The notes: generated by a model from the sequence alone, not told the origin. Shown: positions 21,855 to 59,197, numbered from the stretch's first letter. The stretch: 64,000 nt of DNA from an uncultured Planctomycetia bacterium (GCA_964642015.1 CAZXLF010000001.1:116846-180845), one strand, 5' to 3'. Numbers and translations are program-made.

Positions 21855-22817
21855 ATGTCTGGATCATTAACTGAGAAGGTCAAGGTCTTTGCATTACAAA
21901 ATGCTGGCTTTGATCTTGTTGGAATATCTTCTGTGAATTTGCCGAAGGTCCATGAAGATGCGCTTGTTCAGTGGATCGATCGCGGTTACGCGGGTTCTAT
22001 GGATTATATGGCGCGTAGTCAGAAAAAACGCGCGCGGCCCGAAGAAATCCTTGCCGGTGCGAAAAGCGTCATTTCTCTCGCTATAAATTATTATCATCCT
22101 GATGATGAAAAACCGGTAGGCTGCGCGACGGGCAAAGTCGCTAAATATGCCTACGGGACGGATTATCATAAAGTGATCGAGAAAAAACTGAAGCTTTTGT
22201 CTCAATTCATTCTCAAAGAAGCAGGCGACGGCGCTCAGGTGAAAAGTTATGTGGATACCGGGCCTATCCTGGAAAAAGCGTTCGCCCAGATGTCCGGCTT
22301 GGGTTTTTTTGGAAAGAACACGAACGTGATCACAAAAAACTACGGCTCATGGATTTTTCTGGCAAATCTTATTACTAATTTGGAGCTTGAATACGACGAA
22401 CCGCATATGGGGAGCTGCGGTTCTTGCCGGATCTGCATTGATGCCTGCCCGACAGATGCTTTGTTAGGAAATTATCAGATCGATGCCAGGCGTTGCATTT
22501 CGTATCTGACGATCGAAGCGAAAGAAAATCCGCCGGAAGATCTCAAAGCGCAGATCGGGGAATGGGTTTTTGGATGCGATATCTGTCAGGATGTATGTCC
22601 TTACAATCATAAACCGAAAATCACGAGGCACGAAGAGCTTTATCCAAAAAAGAAAGCGGGAACTTGGCTGGATCTTGAGGCTATCCAGAATATTAAAGAG
22701 GAAGATAGGTTTAAGGAAGTTTTCCAGGAAAGTCCTTTGAAAAGGCCTAAACTCTCAGGCTTATTAAGGAATAGTCGGATAATTTTAGAGAATTTAAGTG
22801 ACAGAAAAGTCAGATAA
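21855..22817 (+). CDS. queG: epoxyqueuosine reductase
   Basis: 320 aa. N-terminal DUF1730-like region. Two 4Fe-4S motifs: CGSCRICIDACP and CDICQDVCP. Confidence 0.9.
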   Translation: MSGSLTEKVKVFALQNAGFDLVGISSVNLPKVHEDALVQWIDRGYAGSMDYMARSQKKRARPEEILAGAKSVISLAINYYHPDDEKPVGCATGKVAKYAYGTDYHKVIEKKLKLLSQFILKEAGDGAQVKSYVDTGPILEKAFAQMSGLGFFGKNTNVITKNYGSWIFLANLITNLELEYDEPHMGSCGSCRICIDACPTDALLGNYQIDARRCISYLTIEAKENPPEDLKAQIGEWVFGCDICQDVCPYNHKPKITRHEELYPKKKAGTWLDLEAIQNIKEEDRFKEVFQESPLKRPKLSGLLRNSRIILENLSDRKVR

Positions 22818-22974: not shown

Positions 22975-24126
22975 ATGGCTTTAACGCAAGACGAGATTTT
23001 AAGATATAGCAGGCATCTGATCATGCCCGAAGTAGGTGTGGAAGGGCAGGAGAAGTTGAAAGCTGCGAAGGTGCTAATGATCGGCACGGGCGGGCTCGGC
23101 TCTCCGGCCGCTCTATATTTGGCTGCTGCGGGTGTAGGTACGCTCGGATTGATCGATTTTGACAAAGTGGATTTTTCCAATCTACAGCGTCAGATCATTC
23201 ATAGTACAAGCAGTGTCAACCAACCGAAGGTGGAATCCGCCAAAAACCGCCTCAAAGAGATCAATCCCAATGTGAAAGTCGTAACTTACGACGAGATGCT
23301 TACCAAAGACAATATTATGCGAATCTTGAAAGATTATGAGATGGTATTGGACGGCACTGATAATTTTCAGACACGCTATCTTGTCAATGACGCGTGTGTG
23401 TTCACAAAAAAACCGTTTGTTTACGGAAGCATTTTCAGGTTCGACGGACAGGCGACGGTGTTTTATCCGGGCAAAGGACCTTGCTACCGCTGCCTTTTTG
23501 CGGAGCCGCCGCCGCCTGGCATGGTTCCAAGTTGCGCCGAAGGCGGAGTGCTGGGCATTCTTCCAGGCGTGATTGGCGTGATCCAAGCGACCGAAGTCGT
23601 GAAGCTTATTCTCGGCAAAGGCGAGCCTCTGATCGGCCGGCTTATGCTTTATGATGCGTTGAAGATGAGTTTTCGCGAGGTTAAATTCAGGAAAAATCCG
23701 AAATGCCCTGTCTGCGGAGAAAATCCGACCATTAAAGAGCTCGTCGATTATGAAGCATTTTGTGGTTTGACTCGCGGCGACGAGCAGAAAGATTATGCAG
23801 CCTATGGCGTTCCTGAAATTTTGGTTGAGGAGCTAAAAAAGAAGATAGACAAACATGAAAAGTTCGTGCTGATAGACGTCAGAGAGCCGTCTGAATTTAA
23901 GATCAATCAACTCCCAGGCGCAAAGCTTATTCCTTTAGGCAACATCCCTGAAAGGGTGCATGAACTCGACAGTGCTGATGAGATTGTCGTGTATTGCCAT
24001 TTTGGCGGACGAAGCGCCAAGGCCGCAGACTTTTTGCGGAAGGCCGGATTTAAAAAAGTGAAGAATCTCGTCGGCGGTATTGATACCTGGTCACAGGAAA
24101 TAGACCCTTCTTGTCCAAGATATTGA
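22975..24126 (+). CDS. ThiF/MoeB/MoeZ-family sulfur-carrier adenylyltransferase with a C-terminal rhodanese domain
   Basis: 383 aa. Nucleotide-binding motif GTGGLGSP. Zinc motifs CYRC and CPVC. Rhodanese active-site loop YCHFGGRS. Confidence 0.9.
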   Translation: MALTQDEILRYSRHLIMPEVGVEGQEKLKAAKVLMIGTGGLGSPAALYLAAAGVGTLGLIDFDKVDFSNLQRQIIHSTSSVNQPKVESAKNRLKEINPNVKVVTYDEMLTKDNIMRILKDYEMVLDGTDNFQTRYLVNDACVFTKKPFVYGSIFRFDGQATVFYPGKGPCYRCLFAEPPPPGMVPSCAEGGVLGILPGVIGVIQATEVVKLILGKGEPLIGRLMLYDALKMSFREVKFRKNPKCPVCGENPTIKELVDYEAFCGLTRGDEQKDYAAYGVPEILVEELKKKIDKHEKFVLIDVREPSEFKINQLPGAKLIPLGNIPERVHELDSADEIVVYCHFGGRSAKAADFLRKAGFKKVKNLVGGIDTWSQEIDPSCPRY

Positions 24127-34814: not shown

Positions 34815-35762
34815 ATGAGCGAAATATCTAATGTCATCATCATAGGATCAGGCCCGGCAGGTTTTACAGCGGCTGTCTATGCGGCACGCGCAAATCTGAA
34901 ACCGCTTTTGTTCGAAGGTCTTGTGAAAGGCGGTCAACCCGGCGGCCAATTGATGCTCACGACTGATGTGGAAAATTATCCAGGGTTTCCGCAGGGGATC
35001 CTGGGTCCGGAGTTGATGGAGCTTTTCAGGAAGCAGGCCGCGAGATTCGGTACGACGCTGATCCAGCAGGATGTGACCAGCGTTGATCTCTCTAAAAGAC
35101 CCTTCAAAGTAACTTCAGACGGCAAAGATTATTTCGGAAACAGCGTGATCATTTCTACCGGCGCTTCGGCCAATTGGCTCAATATCCCTTCAGAAAAAGC
35201 GCTGCAGGGTTATGGCGTTTCAGCCTGCGCGACCTGCGACGGATTCTTCTTCAAAGGCAAAGAAGTTCTTGTGGTTGGAGGAGGCGATTCAGCGGTGGAG
35301 GAGGCAACGTTCCTGACAAAATTCGCAACAAAAGTGACCATCATCCATCGTCGCGACGCGCTCCGAGCATCAAAGATCATGCAGGACCGCGCCCGGAGTA
35401 ATCCGAAGATCGATTTCATTTGGGATTCGGCGATCGAAGAGATCAAGGATCCGGCTCAAAAAAAAGTCACGGGCGTTGTGCTAAAAAATTTGAGGACCGG
35501 TCAGAAAAGCGAGAAAAAATGCGACGGTGTTTTTATGGCAATCGGCCATACACCAAACTCCGAAGTTTTTAAAGGTCAGATCGAGCTTGACGCAAAAGGT
35601 TATATCAAGGTTCATGACGGCAGTCTCACCAGCGTGTCGGGTGTTTTTGCCTGCGGAGATGTGCAAGATTTCAAATACCGGCAGGCGATTACGGCGGCGG
35701 GATCGGGCTGCATGGCTGCGCTTGACGCCGAAAGGTTCTTAGAAGCGGAGCATCACGCTTGA
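34815..35762 (+). CDS. trxB: thioredoxin-disulfide reductase
   Basis: 315 aa with IIGSGPAG and the redox-active site SACATCDG. Confidence 0.9.
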   Translation: MSEISNVIIIGSGPAGFTAAVYAARANLKPLLFEGLVKGGQPGGQLMLTTDVENYPGFPQGILGPELMELFRKQAARFGTTLIQQDVTSVDLSKRPFKVTSDGKDYFGNSVIISTGASANWLNIPSEKALQGYGVSACATCDGFFFKGKEVLVVGGGDSAVEEATFLTKFATKVTIIHRRDALRASKIMQDRARSNPKIDFIWDSAIEEIKDPAQKKVTGVVLKNLRTGQKSEKKCDGVFMAIGHTPNSEVFKGQIELDAKGYIKVHDGSLTSVSGVFACGDVQDFKYRQAITAAGSGCMAALDAERFLEAEHHA

Positions 35763-37162
35763 AATTTCCTTTTCCGTTCAAAAAGAAAAAAGATCCGCTT
35801 CCCAAAAATTTTCTGCCTAAGATCAGAACCAAGGCGGTTCCCGGTCCGCAATCCGTTAAGCTTACCGAATCGCTTAAACGCTTTGAATGCCCCCAGATTA
35901 CTTTCGCGAATGAGAATTTTCCCGTTTTCTTGAAAAAGGCATCCGGTTGCAATATGACCGACGTGGACGGCAATCGGTATCTGGACCTCTCAAGTGCTTT
36001 TTCAGTAGTTAATATCGGTCATGGTTCGCCTGCCGTTCTAAAAGTCATGAGGGAGCAGGCGAAATTAATGATGCATGGCATGGGCGATGTGCATCCAAAC
36101 GAAGTAAAAGTTCTTTTGGCCAAACGTCTTTCAGAGATCACGCCGGGGAATTTAAATCAGACGATTTTTTCATCCACAGGTGCTGAAGCCGTCGAATCGG
36201 CCTTGAAGACGGCTGTCATGCATACTAAAAAAACCGGCGTCATCGCTTTTACCGGTGCTTATCACGGATTGTTGTACGGAACGCTCAGCGTGACGCACCG
36301 GGAAGATTTTAAAAAGCCGTTCCAAAAACAGTTGGGGACGTTCAGTTATCATGCGCCGTTCCCGGATATGCGTGTTTACGAAGGCAAGGCCTCGGAAGTT
36401 TCCATGAAAGCCGTGCAATCGATCGTAAAAAAGTCCAGGCGTTCCAAGCATCCTGTCGGTGCGGTTCTTATTGAGCCGATTCAAGGCAGAGGAGGGATCG
36501 TCGCGGCGCCTCAAGAATTTTTAAAAAGTCTCCGAGCATTTTGTGATCAGGAAAAGATCCTGTTGATTGCTGACGAGGTATTTACGGGTTTCGGAAGGAC
36601 CGGCTCTCTGTTTGCGATCGAAAAAAGCGGTGTTGTGCCGGATATTATGTGTATGGGCAAGGGCATGGCAAATGGATTTCCGATATCCGCTTGTATTGGA
36701 ACCACTCGCGTGATGTATTCTTGGGGAACTTGCTCAGGAGACGCGATCCATACGAGCACCTTTTTGGGAAATCCGCTTGGATGCGCGATCGCATTAGCCG
36801 TGATCAAAGAGATCGAGGATAAAAAATTCGTAGAGCGTTCTAAGAATCTTGGAGAACTTTTCCGCAAGGAGCTGTGGAAGCTCAAGGAAAAATATCCGGT
36901 GATCGGCGATATTCGCGGCTCAGGCCTCATGATCGGCATTGAATTCATGGAATCGCAGACCTATAAAGCCAAGCAGAATCACATTGTTCCCGCAACTTCA
37001 AAAGCGCGGGCATTTTTTGTCGAGTCATTGAAACACGGCATTATCTTATTGCCGTCAGGCCCGTACCACAATGTGATTTCGATCATTCCTCCGTTCGTGA
37101 TTTCTGAAAAAGAGATCCATTTCGCTGTGAAGACCTTTGATAAAATCCTAAGTAAAATTTAG
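35759..37162 (+). CDS. class-III (fold-type I) aminotransferase, acetylornithine/GABA aminotransferase-like
   Basis: TTG start overlapping the trxB stop (gcttgaaa). It has the typical N-terminal PGPQS region and the PLP-lysine context DEVFTGFGRTG ... GKG. Confidence 0.85.
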   Translation: MKFPFPFKKKKDPLPKNFLPKIRTKAVPGPQSVKLTESLKRFECPQITFANENFPVFLKKASGCNMTDVDGNRYLDLSSAFSVVNIGHGSPAVLKVMREQAKLMMHGMGDVHPNEVKVLLAKRLSEITPGNLNQTIFSSTGAEAVESALKTAVMHTKKTGVIAFTGAYHGLLYGTLSVTHREDFKKPFQKQLGTFSYHAPFPDMRVYEGKASEVSMKAVQSIVKKSRRSKHPVGAVLIEPIQGRGGIVAAPQEFLKSLRAFCDQEKILLIADEVFTGFGRTGSLFAIEKSGVVPDIMCMGKGMANGFPISACIGTTRVMYSWGTCSGDAIHTSTFLGNPLGCAIALAVIKEIEDKKFVERSKNLGELFRKELWKLKEKYPVIGDIRGSGLMIGIEFMESQTYKAKQNHIVPATSKARAFFVESLKHGIILLPSGPYHNVISIIPPFVISEKEIHFAVKTFDKILSKI

Positions 37163-37275
37163 TTAACGATATCAATTTGATCACTAGGCGATATTTTAAG
37201 GTATATAATAGTTCTTCGTAAACGGCAGTCTTAACAAGCAGGAGCCGCCTTCCGAGCAGAGGGCGGTTTTGTGAT

Positions 37276-38142
37276 ATGACAAAACTTTCAAATTCAACGG
37301 GTGTATTGTTGATCCACGGCATGACAGGCGCGCCTCTTGAAATGCGTCCATTGGCAAGAAAACTGCAAAAGCAGGGCTATAAAGTACGCGTGCCGTTGTT
37401 GGCCGGGCATGGCGGGGGAAATGATGAACTTTTGGCTTCGACCTGGCAGGACTGGCTTCAGGGCCTCAAGCGGCATTTGAGGTATTTAAAATCCAAACAT
37501 GAACATGTATTTATTGCCGGGTTATCGGTCGGAGCATTACTCGGCATTCTTTTGGCCGCCGAAGAGAGTGTCGATGGGCTTATAATTCTCTCGGTGGATT
37601 TGGGTTATCCGGGTAAAAGCCAGCCGTTGACCCGCCATCTTCTGCCGCTTGTTTATAAAATACCTTTCTTGCGTCGTCATAGTTATTGGACCGAGAAACC
37701 ACCGTATGGCTTGAAGGACAAGCGTTTGCAGCGAAAGATCACCGAAGCGATCGAAGCTTCTAAAAAGAGAGCGACTAAATCGTACGGTCTTTTCAGGACT
37801 TATGTCGAATCCCTTTATCAAGCCGAATTGCTGAAAAAAGAAGTGAGAAAGAAAGCCTCGAATGTCCAATGTCCCTCATTGATCATTCATAGCATGGAAG
37901 ACACAATGTTCAGTGTTAAAAATGCCACGGCTGCTTACGAAATATTGGGTTCGCGTGAAAAAAAGATATCACTGATCTCCGGTGGAGATCATGTGATCAC
38001 GGTGGATCTTTGCAAAAATGAAGTCGCCAAACAAGTCGGCGAATTCATCTCTCATCTTACTCCGCAACCGCAGCGATTCATTTCAATCATGGATCCCGCC
38101 GCGGCAGAAACACCCGAAAGACCGGCCACTTTTTCCGGTTAA
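37276..38142 (+). CDS. alpha/beta-hydrolase, Est-type carboxylesterase/thioesterase-like
   Basis: 288 aa. HGMTG oxyanion region. Nucleophile elbow GLSVGA. Its size and layout resemble Est30-like carboxylesterases. Confidence 0.75.
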   Translation: MTKLSNSTGVLLIHGMTGAPLEMRPLARKLQKQGYKVRVPLLAGHGGGNDELLASTWQDWLQGLKRHLRYLKSKHEHVFIAGLSVGALLGILLAAEESVDGLIILSVDLGYPGKSQPLTRHLLPLVYKIPFLRRHSYWTEKPPYGLKDKRLQRKITEAIEASKKRATKSYGLFRTYVESLYQAELLKKEVRKKASNVQCPSLIIHSMEDTMFSVKNATAAYEILGSREKKISLISGGDHVITVDLCKNEVAKQVGEFISHLTPQPQRFISIMDPAAAETPERPATFSG

Positions 38143-38148
38143 CGAACA

Positions 38149-39246
38149 GTGCCATCCGATGCCGGAACAAAAAAACTGGACTGCGAGATCTTGGAATTCA
38201 TCAGAAAATACTCTTTTAAGGATGCGCCTGATGATTTGTTCGGATCGTTAGCGATAAAGATCTTTGAGTATCAATACGAAAAAAATTTGAATTACCGGAA
38301 ATTTTGTTCACTGCAAGGCAAAAAGCCCGGATACCTGGAACACTGGAAAGATATTCCGGCGATCCCCACAGCGGGTTTTAAAGAACTTGCGCTGACGAGT
38401 TTCCCGTTAAAGAATGCGATCAAAACATTCAAAACAAGCGGCACGACGCAGGCGGGCCGGGGTGTGCATTTTTTTGACACCTTGAGACTTTATGAGTCAT
38501 CGATCGTCCCGTCATTTAAGGCGTTCATGATACCGGATTCTGCAGACCTCTCATTTCATTTTCTTGTTGCATCTCCGAAAGACTCACCGGAATCATCCCT
38601 CTCACATATGATGGGTGTCGTTGACCGGGTTTTTGCCAAACGGCGCGGCAAATTCTATGTTCAAAAAGATCAAATGAATTGTGACGCCTTGATGCGGAAT
38701 TTGATCTCTGAAAAAAAGAAAGTGTTCATTCTTGCGACGGCGTTCTCGTTGAAAATTTTTTTGGACCATCTGAAACGTCAGAAAGTCCGCGTCAAATTGC
38801 CTCGCGGAAGCCGACTCATGGAAACCGGCGGTTTTAAGGGAAAAGTCAAAGAAGTTTCCAAAGAACGGCTTTACGGCGAATGCGGAAAAATGCTTGGGAT
38901 CGATCGGTATCATTGCGTCAGCGAATATGGAATGACGGAACTTTCCAGCCAATGCTACGATACGACGCTCGTGGATAAATTATCGGGGATCAAAAGAAAA
39001 CCATTCAAGAAAGGACCTGCGTGGCTGAGGACTTTGGTGATCGATCCAAAAACAGGCAAAGAAACTAAAAAGGGGAATATCGGTATTCTCAGTCATTTTG
39101 ACCTTGCTAACCGCGGTTCGGTACTGGCCATTCAAACCGAAGATTTAGGTAGAAAAGTGGGAGATGGCTTTGAACTTTTGGGCCGCGCTTCCGGAGCTGA
39201 GCTTCGCGGATGCTCGCTGAGCTATGAGGAATTCCTTAATTCTTAA
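38149..39246 (+). CDS. LuxE-like acyl-protein synthetase (ANL-superfamily adenylating enzyme)
   Basis: GTG start. The stretch DIPAIPTAGFKELALTS...FKTSGTTQAGRGV parallels LuxE's DIPVFPTSVFK...FTSSGT motif. A later TGGFKGK also parallels LuxE. Confidence 0.65.
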   Translation: MPSDAGTKKLDCEILEFIRKYSFKDAPDDLFGSLAIKIFEYQYEKNLNYRKFCSLQGKKPGYLEHWKDIPAIPTAGFKELALTSFPLKNAIKTFKTSGTTQAGRGVHFFDTLRLYESSIVPSFKAFMIPDSADLSFHFLVASPKDSPESSLSHMMGVVDRVFAKRRGKFYVQKDQMNCDALMRNLISEKKKVFILATAFSLKIFLDHLKRQKVRVKLPRGSRLMETGGFKGKVKEVSKERLYGECGKMLGIDRYHCVSEYGMTELSSQCYDTTLVDKLSGIKRKPFKKGPAWLRTLVIDPKTGKETKKGNIGILSHFDLANRGSVLAIQTEDLGRKVGDGFELLGRASGAELRGCSLSYEEFLNS

Positions 39247-39253
39247 GGTTTAA

Positions 39254-40432
39254 ATGAGCGCTTTGGATAAAAAAATAAAAAATCTGTTATTAGACCGGCA
39301 AAAGCACCTTGAAAACAGATCCGTGCATTCGATAGCAGATACTTTAGGCCGCTTGTCCAAACGATGGCTTGATCGAGCGTATCCGTTCAGAAAAAAAGCC
39401 GTGAGGCAGCTGGTTGTTAGGTCCCGTTTTACGGAGGCGATGTCGCATGAGCTTTTAGATGCTTTATTTTCCGAGTTGACCCAACCTAAACTTATAAAGC
39501 TTTTAAAGTCTGAACTTAAAGATCCTTTAGCATTGGACAGATTTCAAAAGGATGCATTGACGGGTAAATGGCAGAGGGCGCGAGGTCCGCGTATCATCAC
39601 GCATATTTTTTCAGGCAATGTGCCTAATCCATCGATCATCAGTTTTATTCTCGGCATGCTTGTCAAAAGCGTTAACATTGGAAAACTCTCTCATAAAGAT
39701 GAAGGATTCCTGGATATTTATCTTCATTCCCTAAGGTCTATGGACCGGAATTTAGCCAAGACCAATTTCCTGATCGATCCGTCCAACAAACGTTCTGTTT
39801 CCGACGCCATTCATTTGTCGGATCTTGTGGTGGCTTATGGTAATGACACATCGATCAAAGAGATCAAGACAATGGTTCCGGCTTCGGTTCCATTCGCAGG
39901 CTATGGTCATCGGATGAGCTTCGGTTTTTACGCCAAAAACATATTGAACAAAAGGAATATCGACGATTTTGCCAAGAAAACAGCATTGGATATCTGGATG
40001 ATGGATCGCAGAGGATGTTTATCGCCGATAGAAGTATTCCTTGAAGCCGGCGGGAAGGTGCCGTTGATCGAGTTTTCAAGCTGCCTCATGAAAGCTATCG
40101 AGTCATCTTTTGAGATCAAAGCCTGGCAGATGCCGGCGAGTTTTGATTCGATCCAGATCGTTGGTTTTGGAGGAAGAAAAATGGTCGTTATCCGTCCTGT
40201 CAAAGATCCGGGACAGCTTATGAAAATTTTGTCAAACTTCGGCAAATATCTTCAATCAGTCTCTTTAGAAGCTCCGGCTGCGGATAGAAAGAGGATAGCT
40301 GACCGTTTATCGGCTTTGGGCGTGAACCGTATCTGTCGCGCGGGCCAGATGCAGTATCCGCCGATCACCTGGCATCATGATGGAAAGATGAATCTGGCTT
40401 CTTGGCTTTCGTGGACAGACCTGGAGACCTAA
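39254..40432 (+). CDS. LuxC-like acyl-CoA reductase
   Basis: 392 aa. ITHIFSGNVPNPSIISFILGMLVKSVNIGKLS follows the LuxC pattern (AGNVP...K..IIK.S). Confidence 0.65.
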   Translation: MSALDKKIKNLLLDRQKHLENRSVHSIADTLGRLSKRWLDRAYPFRKKAVRQLVVRSRFTEAMSHELLDALFSELTQPKLIKLLKSELKDPLALDRFQKDALTGKWQRARGPRIITHIFSGNVPNPSIISFILGMLVKSVNIGKLSHKDEGFLDIYLHSLRSMDRNLAKTNFLIDPSNKRSVSDAIHLSDLVVAYGNDTSIKEIKTMVPASVPFAGYGHRMSFGFYAKNILNKRNIDDFAKKTALDIWMMDRRGCLSPIEVFLEAGGKVPLIEFSSCLMKAIESSFEIKAWQMPASFDSIQIVGFGGRKMVVIRPVKDPGQLMKILSNFGKYLQSVSLEAPAADRKRIADRLSALGVNRICRAGQMQYPPITWHHDGKMNLASWLSWTDLET

Positions 40433-40480: not shown

Positions 40481-42019
40481 ATGAAAAGATATATATGTAT
40501 CCATGGTCATTTTTATCAGCCGCCGCGCGAAAATCCGTGGACTGGGCAGGTAGATGTCGAGGAGTCGGCGAAGCCTTTCCACGACTGGAATGAACGCATT
40601 ACCAAGGAGTGCTACGAGGCTAATACCAAAGCGCCGGTGTTGAATCCTAAAGGCGAGGTGATCGCGCGTATCAATAATTATTCCAAGATCAGTTTTGATA
40701 TAGGGCCGACGCTCCTTTCCTGGTTACGCTCGAACGATCCGGCGACTTACCAAGCGATTATTCAGGCTGACAAGGAAAGCGTCTTGAGGAATGACGGCCA
40801 CGGCAACGCGATCGCCCAAGTTTATAATCATATCATCATGCCCCTTGCCAAAAAGCGTGACAAGATCACGCAGGTTATCTGGGGGATCAGGGATTTTGAA
40901 TTCCATTATAAAAGAAAACCCGAGGGAATGTGGTTATCTGAGACGGCTGCGGATCGCGAAAGTCTGCAGATCCTCGCAGATCAGGGTATATCATTTACGA
41001 TATTGGCCCCTCATCAGGCGCGCCGTGTGCGTCACGTGGGCTTTGGCTCACGTTGGAATTACGTGCATAATGAAGACATTGACTATCATCAACCCTATCG
41101 CATTATTCTCGACCGCGGAAAACAATTCCACATCTTTTTTTATAACGCACCGATCTCGCGGGCCATCGCGTTTCAAGGCTTGCTTTATAATGGTGATCAG
41201 CTTGATCAGCGGCTTTTATCGGCGTTCAACCGGAGAGATTACGCGCAGATCGTTTCGACGGCCACCGACGGTGAAAGTTTTGGGCATCACCATAAACTGG
41301 GTGAGATGGCCATTGCCTATGGCCTTAAGAAACTCGAGGACCAAAAACTCGCACAGCTGACAAATTTTTCAGGATTTTTGGATAAATTCGGCTCGCTTTG
41401 GGAAGTCGACATTTATGATAACAGCTCCTGGAGCTGCGCGCACGGTGTTGAACGCTGGCGTTCTGATTGCGGCTGTCGCATCAATTATCAGGCCGGCTGG
41501 AACCAGAAGTGGCGCTCTTTCATGCGGGACGCGTTCGATTTTCTGAAAGAGATCGTGGATGAAGTCTATGAACGCGAAACGTCGAGGTTCTTTAGGGATC
41601 CTTGGGAAGCCAGAGACGGTTATATTGACGTGATGCTGGACGGTTCGGAAAAGAATAAAAAGCGTTTTTTGTCGGATTACACAAAGAAAACGGCCAATGC
41701 AACTGAAGAAAAAATGATATGGGACCTTCTTGAAGCTGAAAAATTCTCGCTTTTTATGTACACAAGCTGCGGATGGTTCTTTGATGAAGTGTCGGGCATC
41801 GAGCCGGTACAGGTGATGAAATTCGCTTTGCGGGCCATGGAACTTGTGCAGCCCTACTATCAAAGGGAGATCGAGGGCCAGTTTTTGAAGATCCTTCGGC
41901 AGGCCAAAAGCAATATTCCCGAGCAAGGCAACGGCGAAGATGTTTTTAATAATCTGGTCAAGCCTTCGAAGAATGTTTCTGAAAAGATCAGCTTGAACGG
42001 TCAATCGGTAAAAGTGTAG
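40481..42019 (+). CDS. glycoside hydrolase family 57 enzyme (alpha-glucan branching/amylase type)
   Basis: The N-terminus CIHGHFYQPPRENPW is the GH57 hallmark. 512 aa. Confidence 0.85.
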   Translation: MKRYICIHGHFYQPPRENPWTGQVDVEESAKPFHDWNERITKECYEANTKAPVLNPKGEVIARINNYSKISFDIGPTLLSWLRSNDPATYQAIIQADKESVLRNDGHGNAIAQVYNHIIMPLAKKRDKITQVIWGIRDFEFHYKRKPEGMWLSETAADRESLQILADQGISFTILAPHQARRVRHVGFGSRWNYVHNEDIDYHQPYRIILDRGKQFHIFFYNAPISRAIAFQGLLYNGDQLDQRLLSAFNRRDYAQIVSTATDGESFGHHHKLGEMAIAYGLKKLEDQKLAQLTNFSGFLDKFGSLWEVDIYDNSSWSCAHGVERWRSDCGCRINYQAGWNQKWRSFMRDAFDFLKEIVDEVYERETSRFFRDPWEARDGYIDVMLDGSEKNKKRFLSDYTKKTANATEEKMIWDLLEAEKFSLFMYTSCGWFFDEVSGIEPVQVMKFALRAMELVQPYYQREIEGQFLKILRQAKSNIPEQGNGEDVFNNLVKPSKNVSEKISLNGQSVKV

Positions 42020-52999: not shown

Positions 53000-53131
53000 C
53001 GTACGTGTATTATGGTGATGAGGCGGGGTTGTGGCTAGAATGTTCGGGCAACACAGCCATGAATATGACTGTAAAATAGCTCAAACCGCAACGGATCGCG
53101 GGAATTGCGGTGCCAAGAAAGGAGATCTCTT

Positions 53132-54142
53132 ATGGGGATGATCATTGTTCTTGTCACGTCGCTGATCACTTCTTTTGCTTTTTCAAATCTGACGCATTTG
53201 CCCCGCACGGACATGGCGGCGTTGGCAATGAATAGCGGCCGCGTGCTGAGCTCGCATCACCGGTATAAACCTTCCTCTCGGGTCAGCGTCATCGTCGATA
53301 TTGACGGGCTTGACCACCCGACGGCCGATAACACGCATCCTCCGAAACGCGATAGAAGCAGGGAAATATTACTGTCATCTGCGATTTCCCCCGAAGGCAA
53401 TATGGAAAAGACAGCGGAAAAAAAGACACAAGCCGAGGCTTATGCGGCTCAAACCCGCTCGGTCCCTGATGATGCCAATTCGGGAAAGATTGAGCAAAAA
53501 AAAGCACAGGCCGAGTTTCAAGAAGCTCAAGCCTCTTCGATCCCTCAAACGTCGAATGATATTTCCAGACCGAATCTTCAGAATCCGCCTGTTTTGACCG
53601 CCCAGACGTCCAACAATGTTCCCGAATCAAGTGTTCAAAACCCACCGCCGGCTCCGATGCAGGAAACGGCCTTGCAGATGCTGAGTGAGCAGCATCAAGC
53701 GGCAAACGCTTCTTTGCCATCTTATGCGGCCATTCATAATATCCCGCCGAAATATTTTGCTGAGAGCGCAGTTGTTCGATCCACGCCGCCAATGCAGACG
53801 CCTGTTATGCAGACGCCCATACATCAATATCAAATTGAAACGGCACCTTTGCCTATCCCTGTGCAAAATGCCGCGCCGAAACCTCTGCTTAAGACCAGAG
53901 TTGTGAGATCTAAACCTCATCAGCTGAGTCTTGGACGAAAGGTCAGGGATGCGATCTTAAAATATCCTCGGCTTTCCAAATCCATCCGTCTTACTCTGAG
54001 AGTGACTTCCTCGAAGGATAAAGTGACGCTCAACGGCATTGTAGCGAGCAAAAGGGAAAGAGTGCGGATCGGCAGGTTGACCCGGCAGATCGTCAAATCC
54101 AAGAAAATAGAGAACCGGTTGGTTGTGGTAAGCCGTAGATAA
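53132..54142 (+). CDS. exported Pro/Gln-rich protein with a C-terminal BON domain
   Basis: ATG with SD aaggag. The track's TTG at 53105 is less likely. Signal/TM segment MGMIIVLVTSLITSFAF. The C-terminus VTLNGIVASKRERVRIGRLTRQIVKSKKIENRLVV fits the BON pattern. Confidence 0.5.
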   Translation: MGMIIVLVTSLITSFAFSNLTHLPRTDMAALAMNSGRVLSSHHRYKPSSRVSVIVDIDGLDHPTADNTHPPKRDRSREILLSSAISPEGNMEKTAEKKTQAEAYAAQTRSVPDDANSGKIEQKKAQAEFQEAQASSIPQTSNDISRPNLQNPPVLTAQTSNNVPESSVQNPPPAPMQETALQMLSEQHQAANASLPSYAAIHNIPPKYFAESAVVRSTPPMQTPVMQTPIHQYQIETAPLPIPVQNAAPKPLLKTRVVRSKPHQLSLGRKVRDAILKYPRLSKSIRLTLRVTSSKDKVTLNGIVASKRERVRIGRLTRQIVKSKKIENRLVVVSRR

Positions 54143-54293
54143 GTGGGTCGCACAAAAAACCGAGAAAAATTTCTGGGTCGTGCAGGCTTGCTTGGTGACG
54201 AGCGTTTTATTGCCCGCGCTGTTTTTTGAGATCAAGATAAGCATCTGCCGTCTCCGCGATTTTTTGGTGCGGAACGGTCTCCGGCGCGTGAGA

Positions 54294-55283
54294 ATGCTGA
54301 AATATATGAAAAAGACGATAGCTTTGATCTTTGTGTTCAACTTTTCTCTTGCGATCGCGCACGCCGGATCGTCGCAGGTATGGTTTTATCCGAACGGCGG
54401 GAGCAAAGATGAATTGAACCTTTTTTCGAAGCCTGATCAATGGACGAACGCCAGAAACAAGATCCAGGTCTTTGGCTTCAATGAATTTCAGCTTATCGCG
54501 GATTCATCGAACGACTGCGCCAAGACGAAATGCGGCGATAATTTCTATGAAAATTTCATGAATGTAAAAGCATTTTCACAACTAAGCGCGTGGGGAATAA
54601 AAATTTCTATAGGCGGAGGCGCTATCAAGCCATGGGATTGTACCGCGAGCGACCGCGCCAGACTTTATATCAGGAAGGCGATAGACCGGGTCGAAAAAGG
54701 CGGCGGAAAGGTGAGCTACGTCGATCTGGATGAGCCTTTGTTCAGCGCCGGAGAAAAATGCGCTCTTTCCATGGATGCGGCGGCCGCTAAGACAGCGGAT
54801 TTTATGAGGGATATCCAAACGGCTTATCCTTCCGTAGGGATAGGTGAGGATGAACCTTATCCCTCTTTTAGTGCGCAGACGATCAAGCAGTGGATCCTGG
54901 CCTTGAAGGCGAGCGGGGCGAAGCCCGCCTTTTTTCATCTGGATGTGAATCGCGCGGCCGCCGCCAAGAAGATCCCGGACACGATGGCGAATGACATCCG
55001 CGATCTCAAAGCGTTTTTTGATCAGCAAGGGATCCCGTTCGGCGTGATATTTTTCGGGCTTGGCCGTTTTGACCGCGATCAGGATTATTATAAGGATGTG
55101 ATGAGCTGGGTGAACTATGTTCATTCTGTCATCGGACGGCCGGAGCAAATCATTTTTCAGAGTTGGTGTCTCAGCTCTTCAGGGTCGAAGGATATTCCTT
55201 CCAATCTCCCTGAATCCGGACCCAACGTTTACAGTCACGCGAGGATCATTAATGATGGTTTGGCGGTGCTTCAGGCGGAATAG
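54294..55283 (+). CDS. exported hypothetical protein (possible TIM-barrel glycoside-hydrolase-like)
   Basis: Start at ATG 54294 or 54306. Signal peptide MKKTIALIFVFNFSLAIAHA. No firm motif. Confidence 0.45.
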   Translation: MLKYMKKTIALIFVFNFSLAIAHAGSSQVWFYPNGGSKDELNLFSKPDQWTNARNKIQVFGFNEFQLIADSSNDCAKTKCGDNFYENFMNVKAFSQLSAWGIKISIGGGAIKPWDCTASDRARLYIRKAIDRVEKGGGKVSYVDLDEPLFSAGEKCALSMDAAAAKTADFMRDIQTAYPSVGIGEDEPYPSFSAQTIKQWILALKASGAKPAFFHLDVNRAAAAKKIPDTMANDIRDLKAFFDQQGIPFGVIFFGLGRFDRDQDYYKDVMSWVNYVHSVIGRPEQIIFQSWCLSSSGSKDIPSNLPESGPNVYSHARIINDGLAVLQAE

Positions 55284-55358
55284 CGGAAAGATGTCCGGCA
55301 AACAAGATGGGGATTGGGACGGGGTTCGGTAGATTATCTGAAAGTGATCGAAAAATTT

Positions 55359-56579
55359 ATGAGTCGAATGTTCTTCAAAGCAGTTCTCACCTCATTCTTT
55401 TTTATTTCGTATGGAATGTGCGAGAACATTGCCATTGCCCAAACAGATATCTCGACTGTTGACCTTAAAATCACGGGCTCACCGGAGACGGTTTTTGATT
55501 GGCAGAAGGATGCTTGTGAACCGATGGACATTCCGGATATGCCGGCTCATGCTTTTCGGGATAATAATGGACGTATCCAGCTTATCGCTTCCCATTTTAT
55601 AACTCGTCGCATGATAGGACGAGACTTAAACCATCTTACGCATGATTGCAAGGTCCTTATGAGTTCCAACAAAGATCCTGACCCTTCAAAGTTTGATGAC
55701 AAAGAGTGGCTGAACTCGACTTACACGCTTGATGGCAAAACCATCTACGCTTTGGTTCATAATGAGTATCATGGTTGGGAACACCCAGGCTACTGTTCTT
55801 CCGATAAATTTACTTACGGCTGCTGGTACGCCGCTGTTACCTCAGCTGTTTCAATAGACAGCGGGGAGTCTTATACCCGTCTTCCAGCTCCACAGCACTT
55901 GGTGGCGACCATGCCATATCGTTATCAGCCAGGAATAGGCCCGGTCGGCATCAACGATACCACCAATATTTTTTATAATGAAAAAGACGGTTACTATTAT
56001 GTTTTGGCAACATCTCGCAAACAATATCAAGTCCACCCCAGGGGCGTGTGCCTGATGCGAACAAAAGATCTGGCTGACCCGGCTTCTTGGAGAGCATGGG
56101 ACGGAAAAAATTTCAGCGTCCAATTTATTGATCCTTATCTTCATCCGGATGCTCGTCCGGAAGAACATATTTTTCGATCGGTACAGCAAGACGATCTTGG
56201 CATCCCGGGCCCCTCCAATTTAACTTTTAACACCTACCTCAACCGCTTTATGCTCCTCGGGATTGGATGGACCAAAGACGTCAGTATAAATAAATACGTC
56301 TGGGGAATTTGTTATTCTTTTTCAAATGATCTGGTTCATTGGACGCCGCGTAAGCTTTTATGGAAAAGTCAAAACTTAATCAAGCTTCAACCGGGTAATC
56401 CTGAGGCAGATGCTTATCCTTCAGCCATTGACCCTGACAGCCCTTCTAGAAATTTTGATACTACGGGGAAAACGTTCTCACTCTACTACACGCGTTTTAA
56501 TTATACCCGGCCCAATTATAAAGCGAATTGGGGACTTGACCGAGATCTTGTTCGTGTTGCTATTGAGGTCACTGATTAA
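55359..56579 (+). CDS. exported hypothetical protein
   Basis: Start taken at the ATG that precedes the signal-like MSRMFFKAVLTSFFFISYG. The track has a TTG at 55314. About 406 aa, Trp/Tyr-rich, with no recognised motif. Confidence 0.45.
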   Translation: MSRMFFKAVLTSFFFISYGMCENIAIAQTDISTVDLKITGSPETVFDWQKDACEPMDIPDMPAHAFRDNNGRIQLIASHFITRRMIGRDLNHLTHDCKVLMSSNKDPDPSKFDDKEWLNSTYTLDGKTIYALVHNEYHGWEHPGYCSSDKFTYGCWYAAVTSAVSIDSGESYTRLPAPQHLVATMPYRYQPGIGPVGINDTTNIFYNEKDGYYYVLATSRKQYQVHPRGVCLMRTKDLADPASWRAWDGKNFSVQFIDPYLHPDARPEEHIFRSVQQDDLGIPGPSNLTFNTYLNRFMLLGIGWTKDVSINKYVWGICYSFSNDLVHWTPRKLLWKSQNLIKLQPGNPEADAYPSAIDPDSPSRNFDTTGKTFSLYYTRFNYTRPNYKANWGLDRDLVRVAIEVTD

Positions 56580-56765
56580 ATGTTTGGTAGAATGTTAGAG
56601 AAAAACCACCAGTTGTTCTATAAACAAATATGCTTCGCAAATGCCGCTAACGCGGCTCGCGATCGGCTGATACCAACCGCTTTCGAGCGGGGAAAAGTTA
56701 ACGTGTCCTCAAAATGGGAATGGGAAAGCTGTTTGGCAAATGTATCGCTGAAAAGGTAGATATAA

Positions 56766-57515
56766 ATGACTAAGATACCCGAAGTTACAATACCTTCGTT
56801 AAAGAAATACATTGGATATTTAGAAAATCATCATATAGATAAATTAGTGTTGTTTCGAGGGCAACGTGAAGACAAACATTTGCTCCCAAAGATTGCTCGA
56901 ATTAAGTTAAATTATAGAAATAAAATGATTTTAGATGCAGAGCAACGTCTAATCGATGAATTCAAAAGAAAAAGTCGACCATTCCTACAAGTTACACCAA
57001 ATTCCGATTGGGATTGGCTAGCCTTGGCTCAACATCATGGGTTGGCCACAAGACTATTAGATTGGACCCAGAATCCACTAGCGGGATTATGGTTTGCAGT
57101 TAGAAAACCTCCGGAAAAAGATATTTCTGGAACCGTCAAAGATGGGGTAGTTTGGGTTTTTGAAGTCGAAAATGAAAACATCTATAAAGAAGAAGATAAC
57201 TTGAGCCCATTTAATGGAGACCGGACAATGGTTTTTCAGCCAAATCATATTTCTCCACGAATTGTAGGTCAGCAAGGATGGTTTACGGTGCATAAGTATG
57301 TTCCAAAAATAGAAAAATTCATTGCGTTTGAAATACATCTTACGTACAAGAAATTTTTAACCAAACTTATTATACCAGGAGATAAATTCTGTGAAATTAG
57401 GGAGGAATTAGATCGCTGTGGCATAAATCAAGCATCTCTTTTTCCAGATTTAGATGGTTTGTGCGCATATTTGGTATGGGACAATTCAATGTTATCTGAT
57501 GAAAAAAACATTTAA
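56766..57515 (+). CDS. FRG-domain protein
   Basis: 249 aa in a low-GC segment (about 37% GC). VLFRGQRED carries the eponymous FRG motif. HGLATRLLDWTQNPLAGLWFA is the conserved downstream block. Confidence 0.6.
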   Translation: MTKIPEVTIPSLKKYIGYLENHHIDKLVLFRGQREDKHLLPKIARIKLNYRNKMILDAEQRLIDEFKRKSRPFLQVTPNSDWDWLALAQHHGLATRLLDWTQNPLAGLWFAVRKPPEKDISGTVKDGVVWVFEVENENIYKEEDNLSPFNGDRTMVFQPNHISPRIVGQQGWFTVHKYVPKIEKFIAFEIHLTYKKFLTKLIIPGDKFCEIREELDRCGINQASLFPDLDGLCAYLVWDNSMLSDEKNI

Positions 57516-57634
57516 GAATATAATTACTCTACCGTCCGACAGGGGAGATATTGGTTCAATATACAACAGTAGACCGGGCGCCGTCCGGTGGGGAAGCATT
57601 GAATAATCGAACATGAAAATAATTTATTCTAAGC

Positions 57635-58153
57635 ATGTATGAATTTCAAACGCTCGATATTTTACTTTATCGCGGACGTGGGTTCAGCGCTTGGTTTATT
57701 AAGGCGCTGACACGAAGCAAATATAGCCATGTCGCAATCGTTGTGAATCCTTCCATAAATCTGGGAATCGAATCCAATACCGGACATCAGGCCGGTGTAA
57801 GAGCATTTGATCTGCGTAAGCTTAATATGAGTTCGGTAGATGCATTTCGACTCAAATCTCAGTATGTGGTAGATTCAAAGGTCGTGATTTCCTATCTTGT
57901 TGACCATCTTGGTGCGAAATACGATTATCTCGGAGTATTTTTTCTTGGAATTTTGAAGCTTCTCAGCCTTTTAACATTTATGCTCTGGCGGCCGCATAAT
58001 TGGTGGCAAAGACGGCAAGATTATTTTTGCAGTGAGCTTGTCTGGGAAGCTTTTGCTTCGGATGGCATCGACATAGTTCCGCAAACAGGCGCAGGCGATA
58101 TTACATCGCCGGGTGATATCGCATCTAGCAACATGGTTGAGAAAGTGTCTTAA
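57635..58153 (+). CDS. YiiX-family (DUF830) permuted papain-fold enzyme
   Basis: SKYSHVAIVV and AKYDY...RQDYFCSELVWEAF parallel E. coli YiiX (SDYSHTGMLV, KPYDF...RQYCSEVVWKVY). It has no signal peptide. Confidence 0.6.
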   Translation: MYEFQTLDILLYRGRGFSAWFIKALTRSKYSHVAIVVNPSINLGIESNTGHQAGVRAFDLRKLNMSSVDAFRLKSQYVVDSKVVISYLVDHLGAKYDYLGVFFLGILKLLSLLTFMLWRPHNWWQRRQDYFCSELVWEAFASDGIDIVPQTGAGDITSPGDIASSNMVEKVS

Positions 58154-58156
58154 TAG

Positions 58157-58510
58157 ATGAGGACAATTTTACAGCGGTTCATCTTTATATTTTTTACCCT
58201 ATTAACTTTATCTTCTCTTGCATTTGCTGTGGAAATACGGGAAAGTCAGCTGGACGAGGTTAAGCTTGGTATGAGCAAAAACAAGATCATCGCCTTATTG
58301 GGTGAGCCGGATGCGATAAGCGCTGAAGGTGGCCGCACGGACGGCAAAACTTTTGAGAGGATCGAATATAGCATTGTTAGCCGCGCCAAACCGCCAAAAG
58401 AGGGCGGGGAAGATACAGGAGAGCAGTTAGTGACGTATACTTGCTTTTTTGAAATGGCGGATGGGGTACTGGTAAGGATCGGCAGACAAGAGCGCGAAGA
58501 ATCACCTTGA
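58157..58510 (+). CDS. small exported protein, SmpA/OmlA (BamE-like) domain
   Basis: Signal peptide present. VKLGMSKNKIIALLGEPD matches the BamE LxxGMTxxQVxxLLGxP motif. Confidence 0.45.
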   Translation: MRTILQRFIFIFFTLLTLSSLAFAVEIRESQLDEVKLGMSKNKIIALLGEPDAISAEGGRTDGKTFERIEYSIVSRAKPPKEGGEDTGEQLVTYTCFFEMADGVLVRIGRQEREESP

Positions 58511-58588
58511 CACTTTTTGGGTGGACTCGGCGTCTAAATAGGCAGATACACAAAATTTTAGAGGCAAATAAGCCAAAGGAGAGCTAAA

Positions 58589-59197
58589 ATGAGCGCAAAA
58601 AATTCAAAGAAATTGATGTTAGTTATTGTAACAGCAGGACTTATAGCGTTTTCTCAAAGCAATGCGTTTGCGGATGACTGGTTGTCATCCTTGTTTGGGA
58701 GTCCTTCCAACAACAACTCACAAAACAATTCCTCCGGCTCTTATGATCAGAAGCAGATCCAGGCCGATCAGAATGCTGCGCAGGGTTTTATAGGAGCGAT
58801 CAACGCGGATAACCAGAACATCTCGAACGCCCGTTTGAAACTTGAGCAGGACCGCAGAGCAGGGGTGGATATCACAACCGACAGACAGGCGTTGCAGACC
58901 GCGATTCAAAATTTACAGATGGATCAAGGCCGCGCGAACGCAAATGCCCAAGATCTGACAAGGGAAGGTGTCGGCAATCCTTATGGCAGTCTTCTTAATA
59001 CACCGACTTATGGATACAATAACGGATACAATCGCAATGGGTATTATACAGGTTATGCGCAAAATTATCCGGGATATGCCTCGGCCGGCCCTGATCAAAG
59101 ATGGCAGCACGGTTGGGATCACCGGTATGAGAATGGCTATCGGTACAACAACGAAAGACGGCATTGGGATCCAAGAGTCCAAAGGTGGGCTGAATAA
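58589..59197 (+). CDS. secreted Asn/Gln/Gly/Tyr-rich low-complexity protein
   Basis: Signal peptide MSAKNSKKLMLVIVTAGLIAFSQSNAFA. Followed by an N/Q/G/Y/R-rich sequence. Confidence 0.45.
   Translation: MSAKNSKKLMLVIVTAGLIAFSQSNAFADDWLSSLFGSPSNNNSQNNSSGSYDQKQIQADQNAAQGFIGAINADNQNISNARLKLEQDRRAGVDITTDRQALQTAIQNLQMDQGRANANAQDLTREGVGNPYGSLLNTPTYGYNNGYNRNGYYTGYAQNYPGYASAGPDQRWQHGWDHRYENGYRYNNERRHWDPRVQRWAE

Follow-up and report, generated by a model that had tools for sequence, protein, structure and literature searches.

A 64,000-nucleotide stretch of DNA from an uncultured Planctomycetia bacterium (GCA_964642015.1 CAZXLF010000001.1:116846-180845; this whole stretch is referred to as the window) contains adjacent genes for LuxE- and LuxC-family proteins, with a class-III pyridoxal phosphate (PLP) aminotransferase gene upstream of them. 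Our comparative analysis suggests, with roughly even confidence, that these three genes constitute a functional unit, which converts a carboxylic acid to an aldehyde and then to an amine. This acid is probably heteroaromatic, small and polar, and not a fatty acid. As a tentative leading reaction, drawn from gene clusters in sister clades, we propose the conversion of 7-carboxy-7-deazaguanine through 7-formyl-7-deazaguanine to the queuosine precursor preQ1. An earlier, sequence-only reading of the region described a luxCDE-like fatty-acid reductase composed of the LuxE-like and LuxC-like proteins and an α/β-hydrolase. In related clades, this branch of LuxE/LuxC proteins is tied to thiamine and 7-deazaguanine genes and not to lipid genes. 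Therefore, that reading appears to be right on the type of chemistry, carboxylate activation and reduction, and probably wrong on the substrate, the product and the third component. It overlooked the conserved partner, the aminotransferase encoded directly upstream.

The four genes are arranged as follows.

35759-37162, plus strand: class-III (PLP) aminotransferase, 467 aa, PF00202, the conserved partner of the LuxE/LuxC pair.
37276-38142, plus strand: α/β-hydrolase of the monoacylglycerol lipase (MGL)/Est30 carboxylesterase type, 288 aa, PF12146, a lineage-specific insertion.
38149-39246, plus strand: LuxE-family acyl-protein synthetase (ANL adenylating type), 365 aa, GTG start, PF04443.
39254-40432, plus strand: LuxC-family acyl-thioester reductase with a shortened aldehyde dehydrogenase (ALDH) fold, 392 aa, PF05893.

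The last three are the co-oriented, tightly spaced open reading frames (ORFs) of the sequence-only reading. They were found at the positions it gave, with intergenic gaps of 6 and 7 nt. The motifs it listed are also present, GLSVGA in the hydrolase (with Ser84), FKTSGTT at residue 94 of the LuxE-like protein and GNVPN at residue 121 of the LuxC-like protein. The tight spacing is real but less distinctive than it was taken to be. All genes between 28.4 and 46.6 kb are located on the plus strand with short gaps, so the spacing of these three is only weakly informative.

Judged by its sequence, the LuxE-like protein is a true member of the LuxE family. It scores 48.3 bits against PF04443 (cut-off 24.9), with residues 27-361 of 365 covered. 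In a PDB sequence search it aligns end to end (residues 31-360, E=9.4e-12) with LuxE of Photobacterium phosphoreum (7xc6_E), and K230, R346 and C355 align with K238, R355 and C364 in that protein. Mutagenesis has shown the importance of Lys238, Arg355 and the C-terminal acyl-accepting cysteine in LuxE (PMC9157457). The C-terminal motif RGCSLS is equivalent to KGCxLS in LuxE (family motif TRxxKGCxLS), and places Cys355 10 residues from the end of the protein. The length of only 365 residues indicates that the ANL C-terminal subdomain is missing. The LuxE-like protein is not an orthologue of the lux-operon LuxE, as it scores 54.9 bits against the equivalog model NF052244, far below the cut-off of 550.

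The LuxC-like protein is likewise a true LuxC-family member and not a Lux orthologue. It scores 186.9 bits against PF05893 (cut-off 21) and 38.8 bits against the equivalog model NF052251 (cut-off 750). The catalytic cysteine of P. phosphoreum LuxC, Cys296, has its counterpart in Cys255, a position that does not vary among 32 homologues. The AlphaFold model has a predicted local distance difference test score (pLDDT) of 92.9, and its top PDB match in a Foldseek search is LuxC (7xc6_A, E=1e-20, TMq 0.80), with ordinary aldehyde dehydrogenases far behind. Gamma-glutamyl-phosphate reductases are among the structural neighbors. The protein extends only 15 residues beyond the HDG motif, compared to about 45 in P. 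phosphoreum LuxC, and therefore lacks the equivalent of P460-P488. In LuxC, this oligomerization and cleft segment is contributed by the neighboring subunit and closes a >40-Å hydrophobic cleft that holds myristate (C14). A further segment of about 40 residues, between the catalytic cysteine region and the C-terminal domain (alignment columns 341-380), is missing in the LuxC-like protein and its closest relatives. It is present in the other Omnitrophota-like homologues and in all longer homologues.

Thus, the LuxE-like and LuxC-like assignments of the sequence-only reading hold, with Pfam thresholds passed and neither protein placed in an unrelated ANL or ALDH family. Its statement that luxAB is absent is also supported. 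Bac_luciferase is not found in the Pfam annotations, nor is Acyl_transf_2; these annotations include most window genes, except those at about 47-51 kb.

The aminotransferase scores 396.4 bits against PF00202, and its PLP lysine, K301, is invariant in 14 members of the subfamily. It is 44-46% identical (about 400 bits) to aminotransferases encoded in Verrucomicrobia clusters with the order QueE, class-III aminotransferase (AT3), LuxE and LuxC. Its identity to other class-III enzymes is 29-30%, and no solved (PDB) class-III enzyme matches it with more than 265 bits. The nearest solved relatives are gamma-aminobutyric acid (GABA), acetylornithine/acetyl-lysine and putrescine transaminases. In GABA, ornithine and acetylornithine transaminases, residues equivalent to R141 and R398 and the E211 gate of Escherichia coli GabT hold the carboxylates of the substrate and 2-oxoglutarate. 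This dual-carboxylate recognition set is not kept in the window aminotransferase. R141 is replaced by L171, which is invariant in the subfamily, E211 by the invariant R244 in the motif EPIQGRGG, and R398 by S441, a serine or glycine in the subfamily. The replacements argue against an ordinary amino-acid semialdehyde substrate. Judging from this unusual active-site pattern, both the amino donor and the acceptor may be atypical.

We compared 80 genome loci that encode relatives of the LuxC-like protein, reading about 10 kb on either side of each, and 80 metagenome loci from an alignment search with the aminotransferase subfamily. Among the latter, 28 have at least 3 kb of flanking sequence on both sides. 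LuxE is located directly upstream of LuxC in almost every genome locus, including those of Omnitrophota-like bacteria, Verrucomicrobia, Methylomirabilota, Burkholderiales, Alphaproteobacteria and Bacillales. The LuxE-LuxC pair thus spans five or more phyla. Eleven Omnitrophota-like and 14 Verrucomicrobia genome loci have the aminotransferase next to this pair. In two relatives (L008 and L016), no gap remains between the aminotransferase gene and LuxE, which abut or overlap. LuxE/LuxC is present in 31 of the 80 metagenome aminotransferase loci and in 16 of the 28 with full flanks. Both gene orders, AT3-LuxE-LuxC and LuxE-LuxC-AT3, are observed there. By the proteins most similar to its own, the window belongs to an Omnitrophota-like uncultured bacterium. 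Neighbor-joining trees of LuxC and LuxE show three groups, in which the Omnitrophota-like clade, including the window, joins the branches linked to the aminotransferase and Que genes and is separated from a thiamine-linked group. In one Omnitrophota-like locus (L003:6314-9233), genes for an FGGY sugar kinase and a corrinoid adenosyltransferase precede the LuxC homologue, and the 8 kb upstream of it contain no LuxE; the contig ends just past LuxC.

The sister clades provide the clues to the substrate. The typical Verrucomicrobia cluster encodes a GFO/IDH/MocA oxidoreductase, QueE, an 86-aa protein, the aminotransferase, LuxE and LuxC. Its QueE scores 301.8 bits against TIGR04349 (cut-off 300). 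In 12 Verrucomicrobia genome loci, the gene immediately preceding the aminotransferase is QueE. The same is true of 11 of the 28 metagenome loci with full flanks, and each of these 11 contains LuxE-LuxC. The complete arrangement recurs in L017-L032 and in metagenome loci L090, L095, L096, L099, L100, L111, L126, L142 and L146. The conserved 86-aa protein between QueE and the aminotransferase has no family match. In a neighboring subclade, the gene next after LuxE-LuxC is QueD (6-carboxytetrahydropterin synthase, above the TIGR03367 cut-off) in seven loci (L033, L034, L038, L042, L044, L049 and L067), with no aminotransferase nearby. QueC was never found in the QueE- or QueD-linked loci examined. 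The QueE product 7-carboxy-7-deazaguanine is a carboxylic acid, as is the QueD product. Reduction and transamination of 7-carboxy-7-deazaguanine would yield 7-aminomethyl-7-deazaguanine, which is preQ1.

The third group, in Proteobacteria and Bacillales, is clearly related to thiamine. Its operon encodes LuxE-LuxC, an ABC ATPase, a permease, an NMT1/THI5-type binding protein (ThiXYZ-like) and a short-chain dehydrogenase (SDR), and is found among loci L035-L081 (for example, L062:6568-12648, L068:6633-12646 and L040:3148-9611). A thiamine pyrophosphate (TPP) riboswitch is located upstream in all eight loci tested, within about 150 nt of LuxE in five and at about 0.27 to 1.5 kb in three. ThiD is directly upstream in six Burkholderiales loci, and ThiO and ThiG are downstream in several. 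These linkages indicate that the LuxE/LuxC family handles a non-lipid substrate. The simplest reading is that a pyrimidine carboxylate would first be reduced to its aldehyde, which the dehydrogenase would convert to hydroxymethylpyrimidine (HMP). The operon looks like an undescribed salvage or synthesis route for the thiamine pyrimidine via the carboxylate and aldehyde. In Aquibacillus (L062), queCDE is found beside LuxE-LuxC. We did not count this as support for a Que link, as queCDE is an independent operon under a preQ1 riboswitch and LuxE has a TPP riboswitch of its own.

Together, the thiamine and 7-deazaguanine links suggest that this LuxE/LuxC branch reduces small heteroaromatic carboxylates. 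Since the conserved partner in the module is an aminotransferase and not an esterase, conversion of a small carboxylic acid to an amine is the most likely outcome, and fatty-aldehyde synthesis is unlikely. By homology with the Lux enzymes, the LuxE-like protein would adenylate the free carboxylic acid with ATP and keep the acyl moiety in thioester linkage to its C-terminal Cys355. Its flexible tail would then deliver this moiety to the reductase, the LuxC-like protein, at Cys255, from which NAD(P)H would release it as an aldehyde. The PLP aminotransferase, placed in the pathway by the conserved gene linkage, would convert the aldehyde to a primary amine. The window also encodes QueG (21855-22817), which scores 335.6 bits against TIGR00276 (cut-off 200) and contains the Pfam domains QueG_DUF1730 and Fer4_16. 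Its presence shows that the host makes queuosine-tRNA, and therefore needs preQ1 or queuine. It is possible, although we hold this view only tentatively, that the trio represents an undescribed, QueC/QueF-independent route to preQ1. It would then be part of a wider LuxE/LuxC branch that reduces heteroaromatic carboxylates, with TPP-riboswitch-controlled HMP salvage as its sibling. No paper on linkage of LuxE/LuxC to an aminotransferase and QueE or to TPP riboswitches was found in the literature searched, which was mostly outside subscription journals.

Several observations weigh against this proposal. A tblastn search found no QueC, QueD or QueE in the window, and no que biosynthesis gene is located beside the module in any of the 17 Omnitrophota-like genome loci. 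Walking outward from the window, nothing relevant among que and thi genes was found within about 10 kb on either side. The Que linkage is restricted to one large subclade of the LuxE tree, and the substrate in the Omnitrophota-like clade could therefore differ. Rfam searches detected neither a riboswitch nor another leader upstream of the module in the window, and no preQ1 or other riboswitch in 25 loci of the Planctomycetes-Verrucomicrobia-Chlamydiae (PVC) type (4 Omnitrophota-like, 8 Verrucomicrobia and 13 metagenome). The aminotransferase linkage itself is frequent and not obligate, as LuxE/LuxC is missing from the vicinity of the aminotransferase in 12 of the 28 full-flank loci. LuxE directly follows GltD in three Omnitrophota-like loci (L002, L009 and L013), with no intervening aminotransferase gene. 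In the window, a hairpin and the esterase gene lie between the aminotransferase and LuxE. The other neighbors in Omnitrophota-like genomes are housekeeping genes (GltBD, ferredoxin, TrxB, GH57 and YchF). GltB, TrxB, GH57, YchF and a DeoC-type aldolase are Pfam-supported, and GltD was called by reading the sequence only. In addition, the two trees carry no support values, and the ORF calls in high-GC loci are crude.

The hydrolase is the component on which our analysis departs most from the sequence-only reading, which took it as the counterpart of LuxD. It scores 71.9 bits against PF12146 (Hydrolase_4), and its top PDB sequence match is monoacylglycerol lipase 4lhe (E=4.6e-25). Its structural model has a pLDDT of 87, and all 50 fold matches listed are MGL, LipS, Est30 or similar esterases. 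The triad Ser84/Asp209/His239 is intact. Among 32 homologues, the triad aspartate and histidine are invariant, and the nucleophile is a cysteine (GLCMG) in place of the serine in five. With PF12146, the HG oxyanion motif, the GxSxG elbow, the triad and the fold, the protein belongs to the MGL/Est30 group. It shares the last four features with Bacillus monoacylglycerol lipase, Est30 and LipS (PDB 3RLI, 4LHE, 1TQH and 4FBL). Its identity to these enzymes is 23-28%, and its cap region (residues 110-175, with lower pLDDT) is longer than theirs. There is no match to the LuxD family PF02273 (Acyl_transf_2) at E≤0.01, and the LuxD structure 1THT is absent from both the 29 PDB sequence matches and the 50 fold matches listed.

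Gene neighborhoods also separate the hydrolase from LuxE and LuxC. No homologue of it was found by tblastn (E<1) in the 80 LuxE/LuxC-bearing genome loci, and it is thus not part of a system of three jointly conserved components. In Omnitrophota-like relatives, the slot between the aminotransferase and LuxE is either empty or encodes a response regulator, a GGDEF protein or a DUF4870 protein. In two relatives, isocitrate lyase and malate synthase are inserted beside or within the LuxE-LuxC pair. The closest hydrolase homologues (57-59% identity) are located in another cluster, with the order aminotransferase, HAD, hydrolase, FemAB-like, arginase-like and EamA. In L083:3854-9790 and L084:1456-7374, this conserved cluster adjoins a two-component system. 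The aminotransferase there is of class III, the HAD protein is a phosphatase, the FemAB-like protein is of the FemAB-like/Acetyltransf_6 type, and the EamA transporter is present in pieces. The aminotransferase in these clusters is only 29-30% identical to the window aminotransferase, and we consider its proximity to the hydrolase homologues a coincidental resemblance and not a link to the module. We therefore rejected a LuxD-like role on the basis of the Pfam, PDB sequence and structure searches and of synteny. Synteny that places the hydrolase in a different operon is one of the outcomes that the sequence-only reading had named as refuting it. The hydrolase is a passenger in a variable slot, with no conserved role.

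These results bear directly on the alternative that the esterase and the LuxE-like and LuxC-like proteins form a LuxDEC-like reductase, converting an ester-derived fatty acid to an aldehyde for an alcohol, wax or hydrocarbon. The three genes, with gaps of 6-7 nt, are probably co-transcribed. The nearest solved relatives of the esterase cleave C12-C18 monoacylglycerols, and LuxE and LuxC, the only characterized members of their families, act on myristate. However, the esterase is missing from all 80 related loci, the contents of its slot vary among relatives, its orthologues belong to another operon and it falls outside the LuxD family. The LuxC-like protein does not have the C-terminus that closes the fatty-acid cleft, and no lipid genes are linked in any clade, where thiamine, 7-deazaguanine and aminotransferase genes are found instead. 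We consider this explanation very unlikely. A second alternative dispenses with both the esterase and the aminotransferase. LuxE-LuxC would make an aldehyde alone, and the adjacency of the aminotransferase in the Omnitrophota-like clade would be an inherited order of housekeeping genes. Indeed, an entire block, ferredoxin (Fd)-TrxB-AT3-...-LuxE-LuxC-GH57-YchF-DeoC, is syntenic across the clade, and the three loci with GltD next to LuxE and the 12 aminotransferase loci without LuxE/LuxC agree with this view. Inherited order alone is insufficient, however, because linkage of the same aminotransferase subfamily to LuxE/LuxC recurs across several deep branches, with the genes in either order. The overlapping or abutting aminotransferase and LuxE genes in two relatives also argue against it. 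This explanation is unlikely, but of the four considered here it deserves the most weight.

The two remaining alternatives change the substrate. In one, the distal carboxylate of glutamate, aspartate, succinate or 2-aminoadipate would be reduced to a semialdehyde and aminated to ornithine, diaminobutyrate, GABA or lysine, providing an ArgBCD- or ProBA-like bypass encoded beside glutamate synthase. The solved transaminases closest to the aminotransferase, the location of the module behind gltB-gltD in Omnitrophota-like genomes and the gamma-glutamyl-phosphate reductases near the LuxC-like fold are all consistent with it. The loss of the GabT residues R141, R398 and E211 to an invariant leucine, a serine or glycine and an invariant arginine is not. 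The gltBD adjacency is confined to the Omnitrophota-like clade, and the QueE/QueD linkage in sister clades would be left unexplained, making an amino-acid or dicarboxylate substrate quite unlikely. In the other, 4-amino-2-methylpyrimidine-5-carboxylate would be converted through the aldehyde to aminomethylpyrimidine, which TenA could convert to HMP. The homologous LuxE-LuxC pairs behind TPP riboswitches, with ThiD, the ThiXYZ-like transporter, the SDR, ThiO and ThiG, give this idea its basis. However, neither a TPP riboswitch nor a thi gene nor an NMT1/THI5 transporter is found near the module in the window, Omnitrophota-like or Verrucomicrobia loci. The thiamine clade branches farthest away in both trees, and the aminotransferase never occurs in its loci. 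A thiamine-pyrimidine substrate is the least probable of the explanations considered.

Other features of the window, outside the proposed trio, are listed below.

37243-37268, plus strand: GC-rich hairpin and T-run, 8 nt 5' of the hydrolase ATG, genome-specific.
40481-42019: GH57 + DUF3536 protein, the next gene after the LuxC-like gene, 48 nt downstream.
21855-22817, plus strand: QueG (epoxyqueuosine reductase), TIGR00276, context outside the module.

The sequence-only reading also proposed a promoter-like TTGATC element and a GC hairpin upstream of the hydrolase. TTGATC (37177-37182) is separated by 19 nt from TATATA (37202-37207) and by 21 nt from TATAAT (37204-37209). A sigma-70 scan of the region did not call the TTGATC/TATATA element, and with these spacers we dropped the sigma-70 promoter. 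The hairpin is real, with 10 pairs including G-U, a 6-nt loop and then TTGTGAT before the ATG. The region between the aminotransferase and hydrolase genes as a whole folds no better than shuffled sequence (z = -0.64). The T-run behind the stem allows the hairpin to be read equally as a weak terminator of the upstream gene. Thus, it may be a weak terminator or attenuator of the aminotransferase gene as plausibly as a leader, and it is missing from the list of the terminator scan.

That scan found no terminator-like site 3' of the LuxC-like gene, and none between it and the GH57 + DUF3536 gene. The latter is probably an unrelated housekeeping gene, because its synteny with LuxC is confined to the Omnitrophota-like clade. 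The QueG, which is cobalamin-dependent, adjoins a MoeB/MoeZ-type adenylyltransferase with a rhodanese domain (22975-24126). At 53105-59197, a run of plus-strand ORFs (345, 367, 421, 249 and 202 aa) carries only weak BON and FRG marks in Pfam, and the four scanned ORFs of this run have no NCBIfam match.

The closest characterized system is LuxC-LuxE of Photobacterium and Vibrio (PDB 7XC6; PMC9157457). The module shares its two families, and the catalytic logic is expected to be the same, at only about 18% identity. Unlike lux operons, the module has no luxA, luxB or luxD, is ordered E to C and has an aminotransferase as the partner. The LuxC-like protein is about 90 residues shorter than LuxC, without the C-terminal segment of the long hydrophobic cleft, and the genes linked in related clades point to small heteroaromatic acids. 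The occurrence of luxE and luxC without luciferase is already documented. Homologues of both are present in flagellin glycosylation islands of non-luminous Aeromonas (PMC7874193). They are accompanied there by acyl carrier protein (ACP), 3-oxoacyl-ACP reductase, AMP-dependent synthetase and glycosyltransferase genes, and a lipid-sugar has been proposed (PMC7874193). None of these ACP, ketoreductase, synthetase or glycosyltransferase genes is found at the module.

The proposed overall chemistry also has counterparts outside the Lux families. PigE, in the synthesis of the prodigiosin precursor 2-methyl-3-amylpyrrole (MAP), and engineered cascades of carboxylic acid reductase (CAR) and transaminase convert an acid or thioester to an aldehyde and then to an amine. 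The amine is made by a class-III PLP enzyme in these systems, as proposed here. However, in place of a LuxE/LuxC pair, PigE and CAR rely on carrier proteins and on thioester-reductase (SDR-type) domains, and the window aminotransferase scores 265.9 bits against the PigE NCBIfam model, below the cut-off of 850. The canonical route to preQ1, through QueC and QueF, proceeds from an amide to a nitrile and an amine at the expense of 2 ATP and 2 NADPH. If the leading hypothesis is right, the module would share with it the substrate 7-carboxy-7-deazaguanine and the product preQ1. The two routes would differ entirely in chemistry and use unrelated proteins, and neither the QueC nor the QueF family is present in the module.

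Thousands of LuxE/LuxC homologues are named by annotation only, and LuxE/LuxC is known experimentally only as the aldehyde supply of luciferase. Our comparative data suggest a large non-lipid LuxE/LuxC branch, which appears to act as a two-protein, carrier-free carboxylate reductase for vitamin and tRNA-modification precursors. If the assignment to preQ1 is wrong, the conserved trio would still represent a pathway from an acid to an amine with an unusual transaminase active site. If it is true, the trio would supply a compact, ATP- and NADPH-dependent pair of enzymes for the reduction of heteroaromatic acids and would complete the queuosine pathways in genomes that may seem to lack QueC/QueF. 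Predictions of queuosine capability would then change for Omnitrophota, Verrucomicrobia and related uncultured groups.

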